From the IMG/VR virus record IMGVR_UViG_3300045988_119437, positions 72,768 to 136,767 of that record: a DNA stretch of 64,000 bases; one strand, written 5' to 3'. Shown one piece after another: positions 19,050-63,701 of this stretch. Position numbers and translations under genes: made by a program. Under the pieces are notes generated by a model. The model worked only from the letters and a program-made list of their open reading frames with translations, searched no databases and was not told where the DNA came from. Source of the stretch: a virus. Each line of letters starts with the position of its first letter. Position 1 is the stretch's first letter.

Positions 19050-20276
19050 ATGAGAACTTTGCTTCTTTTCCGTGGAGCACCAGGATGCGGGAAGTCCACC
19101 TATATTAAAGAGCATGATCTGGAAAAGTATACGCTTAGTGCCGATACGATTCGCCTTATGTGTCAGGGTGGTCAGGAAACCCCGGCTGGCACAATGGAAA
19201 TCTCTCCCCAGAACGATGATGTTGTCTGGGATATGCTCTTTAAACTGTTGGAGGTTCGGATGTCTCACGGTGAATTTACCGTGATTGATGCAACGAACTC
19301 TAAAACTGTTGAAATCAATCGCTATAAGAATCTTGCAAAGCAGTACAGATACAGAATGTACATCATCGACATGACTGATTTGCCGATTGATGAGTGTAAA
19401 CGGCGTAATGCGCTTCGTGCTCCTCTGAAGCGAGTTCCAGATGCTGCTATTGATAAGATGTATGCGCGATTTGCTACACAGAAGATTCCGTCTGGTGTGA
19501 CTGTACTTTCGTCAGATATAAATGTCCTTGAGAAATTGAACTATGTTCCGCAGGACTTTAGCAACTGGAACAAAATTCATATCATCGGTGATGTACATGG
19601 ATGTTACAGTTGCTTGAAAGAGTACCTTGGTGACCTGAAGGATGATGAACTGTACATTTTTGTTGGTGATTATCTGGATCGCGGTATTGAGAATGTAGAG
19701 ATGTTCAAGTTCCTTTGTGATGTTGTAGACAATAATCGGAAGAATGTAATTCTCCTTGAAGGAAATCACGAACGGTGGCTGAACAAGTGGGGCCATGATG
19801 AACCGGTTCAGAGCGAGGAGTTCGCAAACTACACTCGTCCGCAGCTTTTCAAAGCAGGGATTGACCATAATACGGCTCGTAAGGTTTATTCGAGAGTAGG
19901 ACAGTGCTCCTATTTTGATTACGACGAGAAAAGATACTTCGTTAGCCATGGTGGTTTGAGTTATTTGCCTGAATTTCTACCATTCGTGTCTACTGACCAG
20001 ATGGTAAAGGGTGTTGGTCGCTATCCTGATATGCTAACCGTGGCTGAGTCTTGGGAAAAATCGATGCCGGATAGCTACATTCAGATATTCGGTCATCGAA
20101 ATGTGCAGGATGTTCCTATTGATATGGGGCATCGGTGCTACAACCTCGAAGGAAAAATCGAGTTTGGTGGATATCTCCGTTGCGTGGAACTTGAACACGG
20201 TCAGTCAATCAAATGTGTAGAAACAAAGAATGATGTGTTCCGAAAAGAGGAGTCAAAGACTGAAACTACCGTTTAA
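19050..20276 (+). CDS. polynucleotide kinase-phosphatase (Pnkp-like: P-loop kinase + calcineurin-type phosphoesterase)
   Basis: N-terminal FRGAPGCGKST Walker A; C-terminal GDVHGC, GDYLDRG, GNHE metallophosphoesterase motifs. Confidence 0.7.
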   Translation: MRTLLLFRGAPGCGKSTYIKEHDLEKYTLSADTIRLMCQGGQETPAGTMEISPQNDDVVWDMLFKLLEVRMSHGEFTVIDATNSKTVEINRYKNLAKQYRYRMYIIDMTDLPIDECKRRNALRAPLKRVPDAAIDKMYARFATQKIPSGVTVLSSDINVLEKLNYVPQDFSNWNKIHIIGDVHGCYSCLKEYLGDLKDDELYIFVGDYLDRGIENVEMFKFLCDVVDNNRKNVILLEGNHERWLNKWGHDEPVQSEEFANYTRPQLFKAGIDHNTARKVYSRVGQCSYFDYDEKRYFVSHGGLSYLPEFLPFVSTDQMVKGVGRYPDMLTVAESWEKSMPDSYIQIFGHRNVQDVPIDMGHRCYNLEGKIEFGGYLRCVELEHGQSIKCVETKNDVFRKEESKTETTV

Positions 20277-21260
20277 ATGAAAACTGAGTTCGATAACGCA
20301 GAACTTGTCAGTAAGATGCGTCAAAGCAAATATGTGTTTGAGAAGCGATTCGGAGATATTTCTTCTTTCAACTTCTCTCGTGAAGCATTTTATAAGAAGC
20401 ACTGGGATGAGGTTTCTACCAAAGCAAGGGGATTGTTCATTAACACAAAGACGAATAAGATTGTAGCTCGAAGCTATGATAAGTTCTTTGCGGTCGATGA
20501 GCGGAATGAAACGAGAATTGGAAACCTACAGAACACTTTGAAGTTCCCGGTGACTGCATATCTGAAGGAAAACGGATTTCTTGGCATTGTCTCGTATGAT
20601 GCAGAACAGGATGGTCTGTTCATTGCAAGTAAATCCACTCCTGAAGGGCCTTTTGCAGATATGTTCCGAAAGATTCTCATGGATACGACTTCTGATGAAG
20701 ACCGTAAGAATCTGAAGGAAGTTGCAAAAGAGAATGGTTCCATCATTTTTGAGGTGATTGATCCTGTAAATGATGCTCATATCATCGAATACAAGAAACC
20801 GCACATTGTTTTGCTGGATATTGTTGCGAATGATATGAACTTCAGTGTGATGGATTACGATGATCTGAAGCGTGCTGCTGAAAAGTGTCATTTGCAGATT
20901 AAGGAGAAGGTTAAAATCTTTGAGAGCTGGAGTGAATTCTATCCTTGGTACGAGGGAGTCATGAACGAGAACTATCTGCATCATGGCTTTGAACATATTG
21001 AAGGGTTTGTCCTTCTGGATAGCACGAACTTTATGTTCAAGCTGAAGCTTCCTTACTACAAACACTGGAAGTTTTTGCGTAGTGTTATGCAGAGCGTTCA
21101 AAAGCGTGGCTATTATGAAAATACCGCAAAGTTGTTTACTGCTGAGGATAACCTGTTCTATGGTTGGATGCGTGAGCAACGAGAGAAAGACCAGGAATCT
21201 TTTTGCAAGAAGGGTATTATTCAGTTACGGAATGAATTCTATGAGAATCGGCACGAATAA
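20277..21260 (+). CDS. ligase-like nucleotidyltransferase (putative RNA ligase partner of Pnkp)
   Basis: Start abuts the Pnkp stop (TAAATG); candidate motifs I KENG, IV EGFVLLD, V FKLKL. Confidence 0.45.
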   Translation: MKTEFDNAELVSKMRQSKYVFEKRFGDISSFNFSREAFYKKHWDEVSTKARGLFINTKTNKIVARSYDKFFAVDERNETRIGNLQNTLKFPVTAYLKENGFLGIVSYDAEQDGLFIASKSTPEGPFADMFRKILMDTTSDEDRKNLKEVAKENGSIIFEVIDPVNDAHIIEYKKPHIVLLDIVANDMNFSVMDYDDLKRAAEKCHLQIKEKVKIFESWSEFYPWYEGVMNENYLHHGFEHIEGFVLLDSTNFMFKLKLPYYKHWKFLRSVMQSVQKRGYYENTAKLFTAEDNLFYGWMREQREKDQESFCKKGIIQLRNEFYENRHE

Positions 21261-21329: not shown

Positions 21330-21419
21330 GCCCAAGTGATGGAATGAGGTAGACATGAAGCTCCCAAACAGCTTTGCGTGAGATATCGCGTGCGGTTTCG
21401 AATACCGCCTTGGGCACCA
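21330..21419 (+). tRNA. tRNA-Leu(CAA), type II, CCA encoded
   Basis: Acceptor GCCCAAG/CTTGGGC, anticodon stem AAGCT/AGCTT, loop CCCAAAC, variable arm, T arm GCGGT-TTCGAAT-ACCGC; C33 unusual. Confidence 0.65.
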
Positions 21420-21459: not shown

Positions 21460-22356
21460 ATGAAAAGAATTGAAAAATTTTCAAAAGAAGAGATCGAGCA
21501 GATTTTTAAAGAGAGCAACAACTGGGCTACTGTGGCTGAGAAACTTGGTTACAGCAAATTCGGAGGAAGCTCTAGGGATGTAATCCAAACATATGCAGAC
21601 GAAAATAATATTGACACTTCTCATTTTACGGGACAAGGTTAGAATAAAGGTAATATTGATTTGACAAGATTTAAACAGGGCGTTCCATTCAAAGGGTTAA
21701 GAGAATCGCTCTTACTCATAAGAGAACATAAATGTGAATGCTGTGGAAACAAGGAATAGATGGGAAAGGAAATTTCGTTAGAAGTTCATCATATTGATGG
21801 AGATAGGCTGAATAATGAGTTATCAAATCTCAAGCTACTGTGTCCTAATTGTCATTCACAAACAGAAAATTATTGCGGGAGAAATATTAAGAGACATAGA
21901 GCTGTATCCGATGAAGAGTTTGTAAAGGCGCTTAAAACATCGAAGTCTATTGGTGAGGCGTTAGGAAAAGTGGGAATAAATTACATAGCTAAAAGCTGGT
22001 ATGAAAAAGCACGAGAACTTATGCTTGAAAATGAAATCAAGTTCCCGAAGAAAGAAACAATACAAAAAGGAAAGAACGAACGCAAAAAGCGCGAGACAAA
22101 ATCTTGCGCAAAATGTGGGAAAGAATTGAGTCCAAGAACAAAAGGGACACTATGCAAAGAATGTCTTTATAGTCTTCCATACAGAAGATCTAAAGGGTTG
22201 CCAGAAAGAAGTCAGCTTGAAAAAGATATCCGTGTTATGTCATTTTCTAAAGTTGGAGAAAAGTATGGTGTAACAGGAACTTCTATTCGTAAGTGGTGTA
22301 AATACTATGGACTGCCTTATAGAAGATCCGATATAAACAATACTAGCAAAGAATAA
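21460..22356 (+). CDS. HNH homing endonuclease with NUMOD-like repeats, interrupted by two in-frame TAG codons (21640, 21757)
   Basis: Single frame reads ...HFTGQG-TAG-NKGN...HKCECCGNKE-TAG-MGKEISLEVHHIDGD...NLKLLCPNCHS; HNH motif spans the second TAG. Confidence 0.6.
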
Positions 22357-22398: not shown

Positions 22399-22486
22399 GC
22401 CGCAGTGATGGAGTGACATACATTTCCCGCTTAAACCGGGACGCCTGAAACACGGATCGTGGGTTTGAATCCCACCTGCGGCACCA
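22399..22486 (+). tRNA. tRNA-Leu(TAA), type II, CCA encoded
   Basis: Acceptor GCCGCAG/CTGCGGC, anticodon stem TCCCG/CGGGA, loop CTTAAAC, T arm GTGGG-TTTGAAT-CCCAC. Confidence 0.65.
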
Positions 22487-22489
22487 TAT

Positions 22490-22563
22490 CCAGAATGTAG
22501 TGTAATGGCAGCACGCTGCGTTTGGGACGCAGAAGAGCGATTCGAATTCGACATTTTGGACCA
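22490..22563 (+). tRNA. tRNA-Pro(TGG)-like; weak T stem, possible pseudo-tRNA
   Basis: Acceptor CCAGAAT/ATTTTGG, anticodon stem CTGCG/CGCAG, loop TTTGGGA, T loop TTCGAAT; only 3 bp of T stem pair. Confidence 0.3.
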
Positions 22564-22564
22564 G

Positions 22565-22585
22565 TGGAGTATTCCACTTGCTTTT
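22565..22585 (+). terminator. possible terminator hairpin
   Basis: GTGGA-GTAT-TCCAC followed by TTGCTTTT. Confidence 0.35.
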
Positions 22586-22659
22586 CATGAATACCTTCCT
22601 ATTATTCTTGGCTCTCCAAAAAAAACGGAGCAGTAGGACGCAGCAAGCCAAGTTACATA

Positions 22660-22749
22660 ATGAGGGTTCGCCAAGTGGTAAATGGCATCTGGCTTTGACC
22701 CAGACAGCGTGCTTTATAGCCGATCGTCGGTTCGATCCCGACACCCTCA
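22660..22749 (+). tRNA. tRNA-Gln(TTG)-like with an enlarged 21-nt variable region
   Basis: U1-A72 acceptor TGAGGGT/ACCCTCA, D arm TCGCCAAGTGGTAAATGGCA, anticodon loop CTTTGAC, T arm GTCGG-TTCGATC-CCGAC. Confidence 0.4.
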
Positions 22750-22754
22750 ATTTA

Positions 22755-22844
22755 TGGACACGTGATGGAATCGCAGACATGAAAGATTTAGGCTCTTTTG
22801 CCGTTAACAACGGTGTGCCCGTTCAAATCGGGTCGTGTCCACCA
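22755..22844 (+). tRNA. tRNA-Leu(TAG), type II, CCA encoded
   Basis: Acceptor GGACACG/CGTGTCC, anticodon stem AAAGA/TCTTT, loop TTTAGGC, variable hairpin CCGTT-AAC-AACGG, T arm CCCG-TTCAAAT-CGGG. Confidence 0.65.
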
Positions 22845-22947
22845 TTATCAACTTATGGTTGCGTACCGTTTGTTGATCTCCTTTGACCACTATTATTCCC
22901 AGCTCGCCAGTGATGGTGCAGTAGTGTTTTGTAAGCTGGGTTTTCAT

Positions 22948-23022
22948 GCGGCGGTCGTACAACGGCTAGTACATCAGCCTTCCAAGCTGAGGATGAGGTT
23001 TCGACTACCTTTCGCTGCTCCA
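22948..23022 (+). tRNA. tRNA-Gly(TCC), CCA encoded
   Basis: Acceptor GCGGCGG/TCGCTGC (two G-U pairs), D stem GTAC/GTAC, anticodon stem TCAGC/GCTGA, loop CTTCCAA, T arm GAGGT-TTCGACT-ACCTT. Confidence 0.65.
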
Positions 23023-23174
23023 ATCTCGTATGGGTAGGATCTTTGGCGGTCAGATCTGGCCGCGCCTGTGCGAGATACCACCCCGAAAGGGGCGAGATAT
23101 AGGAAATGTGCATCGCTGTTATTCCTTCCTCGTCTATATGATATAGATGCAATAGTGTTTTATAAGGAAGGTGC

Positions 23175-23210
23175 CCAGTTGAATAGTTGCAGCTATTTAA
23201 CTGGTTTTTA
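23175..23210 (+). terminator. rho-independent terminator-like hairpin ahead of tRNA-Met
   Basis: CCAGTT...AACTGG stem followed by TTTTTA. Confidence 0.45.
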
Positions 23211-23211
23211 T

Positions 23212-23292
23212 GGGACATTATCTCAATTGGTTAGAGAACTCAGCTCATAACTGAGCATATGTATCACGGTTCAAGTCCGACATGTCCCACCA
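23212..23292 (+). tRNA. tRNA-Met/Ile2(CAT)-like, CCA encoded
   Basis: Acceptor GGGACAT/ATGTCCC, D stem TCTC/GAGA, anticodon stem CTCAG/CTGAG, loop CTCATAA; T stem only 3 bp. Confidence 0.5.
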
Positions 23293-55015: not shown

Positions 55016-56028
55016 TTGAAAGGATGTGATTTTATAGACTCAAAAGATGTGTTAAAAACCGAATCTGAGCCAGTAGGTTATATTTATATTACAGAAAATT
55101 TAGTTGATGGAAGAAAATACATAGGCCAACATCATTCAAAAGAATTCGATCCATATTATAAAGGATCTGGAAAAATATTAAAACAGGCATTTGATAAATA
55201 TGGATTTAGTAACTTTAAAACGACGATTTTGGAATGGTGCTACTCGGATGAGGAACTAAACGAAAAAGAACGTTATTGGATAAAAGAAAACAATGCAGTA
55301 GAAGATAGATTATTTTACAATATTTTGCCGGGTGGTCTTGGTGTTCAGATGTTTGGGCCAGACAATCATATGTATGGAAAGCACCATACAGAAGAAGCAA
55401 AAGAAAAAATGTCAGATGCTTTGAAGGGGAAAATGGCAGGAGAGAATAATCCAATGTATGGAGTCCATCTTACATACACTCAAGAACAAAAAGATAAAAT
55501 GAGCGAACGAAACAAACGAATGGGGAGATGGGTAGGAGAAGATAATCCTTGGTATGGAAAACCATCACCATTTAAAGGGAAAAAACGTAGTGAAGAGTGG
55601 TGTAAGAAATCTTCTGAAGCTCACAAAGGAATTCACCCTAATATTTCAGAAGAAACAAGAGCTCGTTTAAGTAAAATGCGAAGCGAATGGATGTCTGGAG
55701 AGAAAAACCATTGGTATGGGAAAAGAGGGGCAGAACTTCCATGGTATGGGGAAAAAAGACACCGGAAGAGATAGAAAAGCTAAGACAAGCAAGTTTAGGA
55801 AAGAGAAAAGGAAAAGATAACCCCGCATCTAAGCCTATCTATTCAATGGACGGAAGGTATTTGTTTTGGACAATACAAGAGGTGGCTGACTTTTTAGGAA
55901 AGACATACGGGCAAGCAAGACATGCAATCGACCATGAAAAACAAGTTGACTGTAACGGAGAACAAATAATTTTCACAAGAGACAAATCTAAAGTAAAGGA
56001 GAAGAATTTTCAGGATGAACTACGCTAA
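55016..56028 (+). CDS. GIY-YIG homing endonuclease with NUMOD3 repeats; frameshifted at A6 run (55752-55757)
   Basis: GYIYITENLVDGRKYIGQH...YKGSG GIY-YIG motif; repeated NxxYG(K/V)xH(T/S)EE modules; the -1 frame continues the repeats and the C-terminal DNA-binding region. Confidence 0.7.
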
Positions 56029-62534: not shown

Positions 62535-63701
62535 ATGATAAGACGTAAAGATAATAATGGCAAAGTTTTAAAAGACGGCGAGAGCCAGAGAAAGGATGGG
62601 AGATACCAATATAGATGGACAAACAAACTTGGAAAACGCTCAATAATATACGCCACTTCACTTAAAGAATTGAGAGAAAAAGAAGCTGAAATCCAAGAAA
62701 AACTTAATTTGGGTATAACGTCTACTTCAAAAATCACAGTGTACCAATTAGCAAAAAGACATCTCGAAGAAACAAAACTTACTATTAGGCCAAGCAGCTA
62801 TAAAACAAAATCGCAGAATTTGAAAATCTTTCAGAATCACCTAATTGGGGAAATGAATGCAACTGATATTTTAGTGCGCGATGTAAAACAATTTGCACGA
62901 GAATTGGATAACGAAGGATATTGTTATACAACAATCAGAGATGTCATGTCTTTAGCTAGACCGGCATTTCAAGAAATGTTTGATGAGAATATAATTCCTA
63001 GAAATCCATTCGTTTTTAAATTAAATACAGTTGTCAAATGTGACTCAAAAGAAAAAGAAATATTAACAGAAGAGCAGTATCAAAATCTGATCAAGTTCAT
63101 GAAATCTAGTCGAGTATATAAAAGGCATGTTGGCATGGTGATGCTTTTGCACGAGACCGGACTTCGAGCAGGAGAATTATGCGGGCTAACAAAAAAGTCA
63201 TTTGATTTTGATAACAACACTGTTACTATATCTCATCAGATGGTGTACGATGGAAAGAGCGGCGGGCTGTATTTAGCACCTACAAAAACAGAAAGTGGGA
63301 TAAGGACTATCCCATTATCTAAAGACGCCATCATTGCTTTTGAAGAAGCGATAAAACAACGTCCGATTGTAAAAGCAGAGAGAATAATAGATGGGCAAGC
63401 CGACTTCTTGTTCATAGCAAAAACTGGAAGGCCCTATACGAATAAAAACCTTGTTAGAATTTTTGAAGGACTAATCAAAGCCTATAATAGTTGCCATGAT
63501 GAACCATTGCCTGAAGTCACTGCCCATAGTATGCGCCACGAATATTGTACACGGCTTGTCAAAGCCAAGATGGATGTTAAATCGGTTCAATACCTCATGG
63601 GACATTCGTCGCCCGATATAACCTTGAAAGTGTATACTCATATCTTAAAAGAAGAGACCGAAGCAGAGGCAATCAAACAGTTTAATAGGATTGTTTCCTA
63701 A
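62535..63701 (+). CDS. int: tyrosine integrase (Tn916/phage Int family) with N-terminal arm-binding domain
   Basis: N-terminal RKDGRYQYRWT; catalytic LRAGELCGL, HSMRHEY, LKVYTH. Confidence 0.8.
   Translation: MIRRKDNNGKVLKDGESQRKDGRYQYRWTNKLGKRSIIYATSLKELREKEAEIQEKLNLGITSTSKITVYQLAKRHLEETKLTIRPSSYKTKSQNLKIFQNHLIGEMNATDILVRDVKQFARELDNEGYCYTTIRDVMSLARPAFQEMFDENIIPRNPFVFKLNTVVKCDSKEKEILTEEQYQNLIKFMKSSRVYKRHVGMVMLLHETGLRAGELCGLTKKSFDFDNNTVTISHQMVYDGKSGGLYLAPTKTESGIRTIPLSKDAIIAFEEAIKQRPIVKAERIIDGQADFLFIAKTGRPYTNKNLVRIFEGLIKAYNSCHDEPLPEVTAHSMRHEYCTRLVKAKMDVKSVQYLMGHSSPDITLKVYTHILKEETEAEAIKQFNRIVS

Follow-up and report, generated by a model that had tools for sequence, protein, structure and literature searches.

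The 64,000-nucleotide (nt) stretch of viral DNA analysed here (the window) covers positions 72,768 to 136,767 of IMG/VR record IMGVR_UViG_3300045988_119437 and carries an array of seven tRNA genes, several of which depart from the usual tRNA structure. An earlier account made from the letters only (hereafter the sequence-only reading) had drawn attention to these departures and had put forward two explanations for them, namely decaying pseudo-tRNAs, or structurally deviant tRNAs that would evade host nucleases or alter decoding.

The tRNA array and its relatives

All seven genes lie on the + strand and were called by ARAGORN: tRNA-Leu(CAA) (21330..21419, 90 nt), tRNA-Leu(UAA) (22399..22486, 88 nt), tRNA-Pro(UGG) (22490..22563, 74 nt), tRNA-Gln(UUG) (22661..22750, 90 nt), tRNA-Leu(UAG) (22756..22844, 89 nt), tRNA-Gly(UCC) (22948..23022, 75 nt, with U73) and a gene with anticodon CAU, called Met(cat) (23212..23292, 81 nt). 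They follow one another in this order, with a homing-endonuclease gene standing between the first two. The CCA end is encoded in six of them, tRNA-Gln being the exception. Against the Rfam tRNA model RF00005, whose gathering threshold is 29 bits, six of the seven genes scored 44-54 bits (Leu(UAA) 47, Pro 45.2, Gln 52.8, Leu(UAG) 44.1, Gly 53.6 and CAU 46.2). Six genes were thus recovered by both ARAGORN and the Rfam model, and Leu(CAA), which had no Rfam match, by ARAGORN only. A scan of the whole 64 kb at E<=5 returned these six tRNA matches only and no extra tRNA-like gene.

Several nucleotides that are universal in tRNAs are replaced in the window. Leu(CAA) and Gly carry U53-A61 and Pro carries A53-U61; the D loops of Leu(UAA) and Leu(UAG) are devoid of GG, and Leu(UAA) also has U56. 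The Gln and CAU genes keep all of the universal positions U33, G18G19, U54-A58, C56 and G53-C61. The string TGATGGA...ACAT, previously reported as common to the D arms of the three Leu genes, is indeed found in all of them, where it forms a D stem ATG/CAT with an A10-U25 pair.

A megablast search of the array against 50,697 phage records gave a single match of 73 nt, in an unannotated gut phage. Relatives were gathered through the adjacent Rnl1-family RNA ligase gene, yielding 80 viral contigs of about 110-139 kb whose ligases are 91-100% identical at the amino acid level. The anticodon order is common to all 80 related arrays: Leu-caa, Leu-taa, Pro-tgg, Gln-ttg, Leu-tag, Gly-tcc (once or twice) and cat or tat. 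Each slot holds 15-26 distinct sequences across the 80 relatives, including deeply divergent alleles of different lengths. Median pairwise identity is 0.64-0.73 in six of the seven tRNA slots and 0.96 in the CAU slot, against a median DNA identity of 0.94 for the adjacent ligase gene in the same comparison. Since tRNA genes normally rank among the most conserved genes, the array stands out as a hypervariable island.

Across these alleles, acceptor, anticodon and T-stem positions are 96-100% paired, with double compensatory changes at 9-16 of the 17 scored pairs per slot, and no indels or truncations were found in any tRNA slot. Tertiary partners covary as well. The window's Leu(UAA) combines a D loop with GA and without GG (GAGTGACATA) with U56 in its T loop, TTTGAAT, and its sister allele combines GG with C56. 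The U54-A58 pair is swapped to A54-U58 in 18 of 138 distinct alleles (related arrays L001-L080), and the D-stem pair 10-25 is G-C, A-U or C-G. Leu(UAG), the D loop of which (GAATCGCAGA) has C at the usual G18 position, has variants that keep the variable-arm pairing. The window alleles themselves form a linked block (Leu-90, Leu-88, Pro-74, Gln-90, Leu-89) that is found in several contigs, and an independent relative (L153), which differs here at 25 of 950 aligned positions, has identical copies of Pro-74, Gln-90 and Met-81.

The deviations of the array are not a matter of chance, as their alleles recur in independent contigs and their architectures in many unrelated viral contigs. Moreover, pairing that is kept through compensatory changes points to selection for the tRNA fold and does not fit decay. 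These comparisons show that the tRNA bodies constitute a hypervariable island of ancient alleles, reshuffled between genomes that are otherwise about 94% identical, and that every allele, those of the window included, keeps its predicted tRNA fold by compensatory changes.

Other oddities were seen in the related arrays. T loops such as ATCATGA and ATCGTGC are present in many non-window alleles, and C55 in three alleles. A 74-nt tRNA-like gene called His(atg) by ARAGORN lies between Leu(tag) and Gly in L002, L003 and 14 other arrays; it has an 8-base-pair (bp) acceptor stem and an anticodon loop, TGATGAA, with G at position 33.

Long-arm tRNA-Gln, 8/4 tRNA-Pro and the CAU slot

The tRNA-Gln gene had been described as having a U1-A72 acceptor end, a Gln-type D arm and 21 nt separating the anticodon stem from the T stem. 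All three features hold, and only its coordinates had to be shifted, from 22660-22749 to 22661-22750. U1-A72 is followed by A73, and the D arm reads GCCA/AGTGGTAAA/TGGC. The 21-nt variable arm (22705-22725) folds as a bulged 5-bp hairpin, a stem-loop of more than 10 nt as is typical of class II tRNAs, and the minimum-energy fold of the whole gene (RNAfold) is a cloverleaf with an extra arm.

The pattern sought in public viral contigs combined a tRNA-Gln D arm with a UUG anticodon loop and required the T loop to follow at a long distance. At least 100 viral stretches match this pattern; 98 of 100 were called as tRNAs by ARAGORN, at least 93 of the matches being tRNA-Gln(ttg) of 80-95 nt. Among the matches listed, the carriers belong to many unrelated sequence families with contigs from about 25 to more than 200 kb, and in one carrier family of about 45 kb the loci checked yielded no tRNA other than the long-arm tRNA-Gln. 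The class comprises at least 32 distinct variable regions, most of which start with CA and end with C. As these arms have no common register, they were folded one by one against shuffled sequences instead of being fitted to a covariance model: hairpins of 3 bp or more were obtained for 28 of the 32, the stems differing widely in sequence (mean z -1.56). The discriminator base varies across the class (G, A or U).

In the phage family of the window, the alleles of the Gln slot measure 71, 72, 74, 75, 77, 88 or 90 nt, and the long-arm allele takes the same slot as the common canonical tRNA-Gln of 71 nt. A second, divergent arm-bearing allele of 88 nt shares the arm base CAGCG...CG(G/A)TC with that of the window. 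When the same exact pattern was sought in one genome per species from 185,579 species, 16 matches were obtained, of which about seven are true long-arm tRNA-Gln genes. These are all from gut Clostridia or unclassified metagenome-assembled genomes, and those looked at more closely are part of tRNA arrays of phage type or neighbour large proteins without Pfam match. Within the reach of this exact pattern, we therefore discarded the idea that the long-arm gene is a host's own tRNA. The scans place the window gene in a widespread class, carried mostly by phages, whose members are bacterial tRNA-Gln genes of otherwise ordinary build with a hairpin added after C44-A45.

Long variable arms are known as recognition features of class II tRNAs (PMC7609411). 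Like these tRNAs (Leu, Ser, Tyr), the Gln gene has a stem-loop longer than 10 nt separating its anticodon stem from its T stem, but it differs from them in having the body, the UUG anticodon and the identity nucleotides of a bacterial tRNA-Gln, with the arm placed after C44-A45. A stem-loop arm of more than 10 nt also characterises the V-arm class I tRNAs of nematodes and other eukaryotes (Hamashima et al. 2016, as cited in PMC5389517); unlike the tRNAs covered by that citation, the long-arm tRNA-Gln genes are carried by phages and prophage-like regions of gut Clostridia. A search of the open-access literature found no published description of the long-arm tRNA-Gln class, which may still have been reported. 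GlnRS and GluRS are class I synthetases and contact the tRNA on the side facing away from its variable region, which would explain how tRNA-Gln can accommodate the arm. Such a natural, arm-bearing tRNA-Gln is informative on recognition by GlnRS, GluRS and GatCAB, and could be of use in orthogonal tRNA engineering.

In keeping with tolerance of an arm on tRNAs of class I synthetases, the other long-arm genes of the fetched loci include CAU (Ile/Met), Ile(UAU), Trp(CCA) and Trp-like CUA; Thr(UGU) and singles of several other types are present as well. Examples from phage loci (e.g., L142, L143, L104, L204) measure 92 nt for Trp(cca), 88-92 nt for Ile(tat) and 82-87 nt for Thr(tgt). A 92-nt CAU allele occupies the last slot of the window's array type in 11 related arrays (L005, L007 and L040 are among the examples of long-arm loci).

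The Pro and CAU genes were both noted earlier for T stems with only three complementary pairs. For Pro this is correct in the canonical 7/5 register, in which the T stem AGCGA/TCGAC has three Watson-Crick pairs, the linker being 3 nt long and the two outermost positions of the stem mismatched. The gene is best read in an alternative register, which gives an 8-bp acceptor stem (CCAGAATG/CATTTTGG), a UA linker (U8-R9) and a T stem made of G.A, C-G, G-C and A-U. The Rfam alignment uses the register with the 8-bp acceptor; RNAfold extends the acceptor to 9 bp, and a 9/3 layout with a U9-A64 pair may be a further alternative. The remainder of the molecule has a 4-nt variable loop and a 4-bp D stem with a 7-nt loop.

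A scan of viral contigs for the same D arm and anticodon retrieved 77 stretches and 45 distinct sequences of this 8/4 type. Their eighth acceptor pair is GC in 42, CG in two and AT in one, and is never unpaired. In the outer T layer, 43 sequences have G.A and the two whose eighth pair is C-G have A.G, and free covariation is seen at the three inner T-stem pairs. Two relatives that share this D arm are of ordinary 7/5 layout and served as controls. An 8-bp acceptor and a 4-layer T stem together restore a 12-layer acceptor/T branch, the helix that is measured by the translation and processing machinery. The window's tRNA-Pro belongs to a widespread phage class for which this layout is the best reading. 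tRNA-Ser and tRNA-His of 8/4 type have been described in phages, and tRNAs of this layout were shown to be functional in bacterial translation (Mukai et al. 2017, PMC5389517). The 8/4 tRNA-Pro is a further member of this architecture. Read in this way, it has the same 12-layer branch, obtained by a longer acceptor and a shorter T stem, as those tRNAs and the allo-tRNAs, and is likewise found in phage tRNA clusters. Its identity, however, is Pro(UGG) and not Ser or His, it has neither the long variable arm nor the long D stem of the allo-tRNAs, and unlike the 8/4 tRNAs of Mukai et al. its fourth T layer is a conserved G.A (or A.G) instead of a Watson-Crick pair. The long-arm tRNA-Gln and the 8/4 tRNA-Pro both appear to be under-described architecture classes. 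Covariance models miss or under-score such genes, with the result that phage tRNA inventories are biased.

In the CAU gene, the T stem CACGG/CCGAC likewise has three pairs in the canonical register, flanked by C.C and A.A, and the variable region is 9 nt long. To reach twelve acceptor/T layers here, C.C and A.A have to be included in the count. The allele most often found at this slot is very similar to tRNA-Ile2 of Escherichia coli, and six arrays have Ile(UAU) in its place. Given these two observations, the slot probably serves AUA codons, and the last position of the array is probably that of an AUA-reading tRNA-Ile2. In two arrays, the last slot is replaced by a 91-nt gene called Tyr(ata).

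The Leu(CAA) gene, homing endonucleases and in-frame TAG codons

The tRNA-Leu(CAA) gene had been singled out for C33. Its anticodon loop CCCAAAC bears this out, and the correction concerns only its location, about 1 kb upstream of the span (22399-23292) under which it had been listed. The gene has a 5-bp variable arm in addition to the D stem and the U53-A61 pair given above, and its minimum-energy fold (RNAfold) is a full five-arm cloverleaf (z -2.45). The CCCAAAC loop is found in 15 of the 81 arrays, in two alleles of 90 and 85 nt. Differences between the two are fully compensated in the acceptor, D and anticodon stems, and the T arm with U53-A61 is common to both. Leu(caa) and Leu(taa) are separated by an insertion (266-987 nt) in all 15 arrays with C33 and in none of the 66 with U33, and these insertions consist of one of two endonuclease genes or a remnant. 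C33 is consequently better explained by linkage to the homing-endonuclease insertion. The simplest reading is that C33 alleles travel as a block with the endonuclease, and some of the differences of these alleles may protect the DNA target from cleavage. A different endonuclease-like open reading frame (ORF) of about 250 amino acids (insertion of 765-774 nt) is located at the same site in L049, L072, L077 and L078, again with a C33 Leu(caa) allele.

The window's insertion is an HNH homing-endonuclease gene (21460..22356, + strand; Pfam HNH_3/HNH) lying between Leu(CAA) and Leu(UAA), and is a gene present in some arrays and absent in others. The SegB gene of phage T4 is a homing endonuclease of the T4 tRNA cluster (PMC2330249). 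The two have in common a free-standing homing-endonuclease gene between tRNA genes and the preferential co-inheritance of flanking tRNA alleles, but the window gene is of HNH and not GIY-YIG type, and its reading frame contains TAG codons.

Two in-frame TAG codons are located at 21640-21642 and 21757-21759. With the homologues at the same site (loci L001, L013, L020, L026, L066 and L075) included, TAG is kept at both columns in three divergent lineages. One of these has a third TAG, and one homologue has TGG at all three columns, each of which is a conserved Trp position. No other stops or frameshifts were found in the ORF. Between the TAG-bearing lineages, non-synonymous divergence is 0.18-0.35 per site and synonymous divergence is saturated at 0.67-0.87, a purifying pattern that holds in the segments before, between and after the TAG codons. 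The gene thus appears to be translated through TAG or to have evolved where TAG is a sense codon. The 70 ORFs of at least 100 codons on the + strand of the window end in TAA (39), TGA (29) or TAG (two), which hints that TAG is avoided as a terminator in the window; one of the two TAG-ended ORFs is a second homing-endonuclease gene, at 55016-55774.

Candidates for a reader of these codons were sought without success. The search for tRNAs with anticodon CUA gave none in the window, in the 80 related arrays or in the 10 kb upstream of the window. Genome-wide stop recoding was discarded, since ORF coverage of the window barely changes with TAG as sense, and neither a sign of it nor any tRNA was seen in the 10 kb upstream. 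Candidate suppressors, tRNAs with a tRNA-Trp-like anticodon arm but anticodon CUA (GGTCTCTAAAACC), are present in 89 viral stretches (L261, L219; L264-L343), some of them with long variable arms, but none of these stretches is on a contig of the family. C33 Leu(CAA) was rejected as the TAG reader because the TGG version of the HNH gene also adjoins a C33 allele, and long-arm tRNA-Gln because arrays whose gene has TAG may carry either a long-arm or a short Gln allele.

Persistence of the unusual architectures

Phage tRNAs have recently been recast as a counter to tRNA-cleaving immunity, the known escapes being point changes in the anticodon loop. A published proposal is that anticodon nucleases fail to act on them (van den Berg et al. 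2023, PMC10264068), and the Septu system cleaves tRNA-Tyr in its variable loop (PMC13096335). The tRNAs of mycobacteriophages and T5 that act against VapC, PrrC, PARIS and retron effectors are unlike the host's tRNAs at positions that the nuclease needs (PMC10264068, PMC11464382, PMC11555353), and in some of the published phages an RNA ligase co-occurs with counter-defence tRNAs, as in the phage of the window. In contrast to the anticodon-loop substitutions of the published cases, the changes seen here affect tRNA architecture, through an extra arm, an 8/4 branch or swapped tertiary pairs, and vary between members of one family, and the likeness to nuclease-insensitive tRNAs is a putative one.

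Immediately upstream of the array are two genes on the + strand that are relevant to this question. The first (19050..20276) codes for a polynucleotide kinase-phosphatase-like protein (Pfam AAA_33, 1.7e-21; Metallophos, 2.2e-16), the kinase part of which matches PDB entries 4GP7 and 4JST while the phosphatase part matches the lambda/PP2A phosphatase fold. The second (20277..21260) codes for the Rnl1-family RNA ligase (Pfam RNA_lig_T4_1, 4.6e-39), whose PDB matches are tRNA ligases and T4 RNA ligase 1. The ligase gene adjoins the tRNA array in all 80 relatives, which were themselves gathered through it. The two products are a predicted RNA end-healing and end-sealing pair. T4 Pnkp and Rnl1, which repair tRNA-Lys cleaved by PrrC (as cited in PMC10264068), are likewise healing and sealing enzymes encoded by a phage. 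Two differences separate the systems: the phosphatase of the window phage is of calcineurin type, as in Clostridium thermocellum Pnkp, and not of the DxD type of T4, and the repair genes of the window abut the tRNA array.

We favour, at a probability of about 0.6, an explanation in which the array consists of working variant tRNAs in a diversifying cassette, with shapes kept through nuclease escape. The more doubtful part, that escape from nucleases is what drives the deviant shapes, we would put at slightly worse than even odds. According to this explanation, the tRNAs would be expressed, processed and charged, and would read UUR, CUN, CCN, CAR, GGN and AUA codons during infection. Their unusual architecture would persist by surviving the loss of ordinary tRNAs, most likely to tRNA-cleaving defence nucleases of the host or of a competitor. 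The neighbouring repair enzymes would address the same threat, and the homing endonucleases in the array would promote allele shuffling. Escape is suggested by the adjacent repair genes, the hypervariable tRNA bodies and the published precedents taken together, and by the fact that mostly U34 tRNAs can cover whole boxes for Leu, Pro, Gly and Gln while the codons served are minor in the phage genes. The locus accordingly suggests a second route of escape, by changed tRNA architecture, for which the class-II-like tRNA-Gln, the 8/4 tRNA-Pro and the paired swaps of universal tertiary nucleotides are test cases. As these variants segregate as alleles in one phage family beside repair genes, the question is directly testable.

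Five observations weigh against this explanation. First, Leu(CAA) has no RF00005 match at E<=10, even when only 121 nt were searched. Second, the window's 81-nt CAU allele, with its weak T stem, is known from two genomes only (the window and L153), in identical form. Third, Gly(UCC) has a G3.U70 pair that is private to the window genome, all relatives including L153 having A3-U70; G3.U70 is the classic alanine identity pair, and its presence could cause mischarging. Fourth, the minor share of the served codons neither requires nor excludes a supply role. Fifth, the hypervariability could come from endonuclease-driven recombination alone, without selection by defence.

The strongest competing explanation is plain tRNA supply together with selfish shuffling, in which the odd structures are near neutral, homing endonucleases drag flanking alleles between co-infecting phages and no defence nuclease is involved. 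The strictly conserved anticodon set, kept while the bodies vary, agrees with it. So do the two types of endonuclease gene and their remnants in the array, perfectly linked to C33 Leu(CAA), for which T4 SegB provides the precedent (PMC2330249), and conserved spacers between the tRNA genes (described below) could act as recombination arms. Supply in the form of classical codon compensation is weak, however, since the served codons are a minority in the phage's own genes (CAA makes up 27% of Gln codons and ATA 7% of Ile codons). Moreover, the long-arm tRNA-Gln and the 8/4 tRNA-Pro are kept in many unrelated phage families, which points to selection for architecture, universal positions change in coordinated pairs and not at random, and RNA repair genes adjoin the array. 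We consider this explanation possible but unlikely.

Decay, in which the deviant genes would be unused relics, fares much worse. It could account for the Rfam result of Leu(CAA), for the universal nucleotides missing from several genes, for the rare CAU gene with its three T-stem pairs and expanded variable region, and for the private pair of Gly. Yet the stems of Leu(CAA), Gln and all Leu genes are fully paired, divergent alleles are separated by compensatory changes, no slot shows indels or truncations, the Pro-74, Gln-90 and Met-81 alleles are unchanged in an independent genome whose flanks have diverged, and the Gln and Pro architectures are kept in dozens of distinct sequences. As an account of the whole array it is very improbable, and it is rejected for most of the genes, in particular Gln, Pro and the three Leu. 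Of the explanations offered by the sequence-only reading, structurally deviant but functional tRNAs is thus the one that the compensated stems, recurring alleles and conserved architectures uphold. The CAU gene calls for a separate verdict: it is either a young functional variant or a gene on its way out, and decay confined to this gene is the lesser, though by no means negligible, of the two prospects.

Least probable of all is altered decoding, in which the extra arm or other changes would switch identity (e.g., charging by SerRS or LeuRS) or allow stops to be read, in connection with the TAG codons of the endonuclease: it could invoke the class II recognition role of long arms (PMC7609411), the position of the TAG codons at conserved Trp columns of a gene under purifying selection and the rarity of TAG among terminators, but it finds no direct support, as anticodons are invariant per slot, no CUA anticodon was found in the window, the 80 arrays or the 10 kb upstream, TAG-bearing endonuclease genes occur with long-arm and short Gln alleles alike, and the Gln gene has retained U35-G36-A37, a weak pair at 1-72 and the D arm usual for tRNA-Gln, is replaced at its slot by a canonical tRNA-Gln in other arrays and belongs to a class with variable discriminator.

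The explanation based on nuclease escape can be extended further, in a form that we regard as speculative and rather improbable. Phages of gut Firmicutes might keep alternative architectures (an extra arm on the class I-charged tRNA-Gln and, in relatives, on Ile/Met and Trp; the 8/4 tRNA-Pro; swapped tertiary pairs) as marks of self and non-self, by which phage tRNAs would evade nucleases, of the host or of the phage, that act on the usual tRNA shape. The array would then be a diversifying counter-defence locus, and the TAG-bearing endonuclease might reveal amber suppression, possibly with TAG read as Trp. The host is probably a gut Firmicute, judging from the DNA polymerase III alpha subunit, the closest cultured relative of which (47%) is that of a [Clostridium] innocuum phage.

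The spacers of the array are themselves structured. Folding and alignment revealed three copies of an RNA motif on the + strand, upstream of tRNA-Gln (22600..22652), tRNA-Gly (22891..22940) and the CAU gene (23117..23171). It is composed of T(A/G)TTATT, a 7-bp outer stem (CTTGGCT/AGCCAAG, CCCAGCT/AGCTGGG and CCTTCCT/AGGAAGG in copies 1 to 3), an inner hairpin and a conserved GCA(G/A)TAG. Copy 1 has TATTATT and GCAGTAG. From copy to copy, the two stems vary through compensatory changes. Of the 81 arrays, 66 contain the motif, again with compensatory changes, and it has no match in Rfam.

A structured trailer (23023..23104, + strand; fold z -3.12), made of a long hairpin and then a small GC hairpin, directly follows the CCA of tRNA-Gly. 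The same element follows tRNA-Gly in 43 fetched loci, where compensatory changes such as CTCG/CGAG to CTTG/CAAG are seen, and it is 97% identical to a stretch of the unannotated gut phage MT835676. Directly upstream of the last tRNA gene, a 13-bp hairpin is followed by TTTTTAT (23175..23204, + strand), and this hairpin is kept in relatives with a canonical tRNA at the last slot.

The rest of the window contains only early, replication and nucleotide-metabolism genes. A tyrosine-integrase gene lies at its right end (62535-63701), and almost all related contigs end 0-270 nt after this gene, which suggests a prophage boundary or a fixed genome end.

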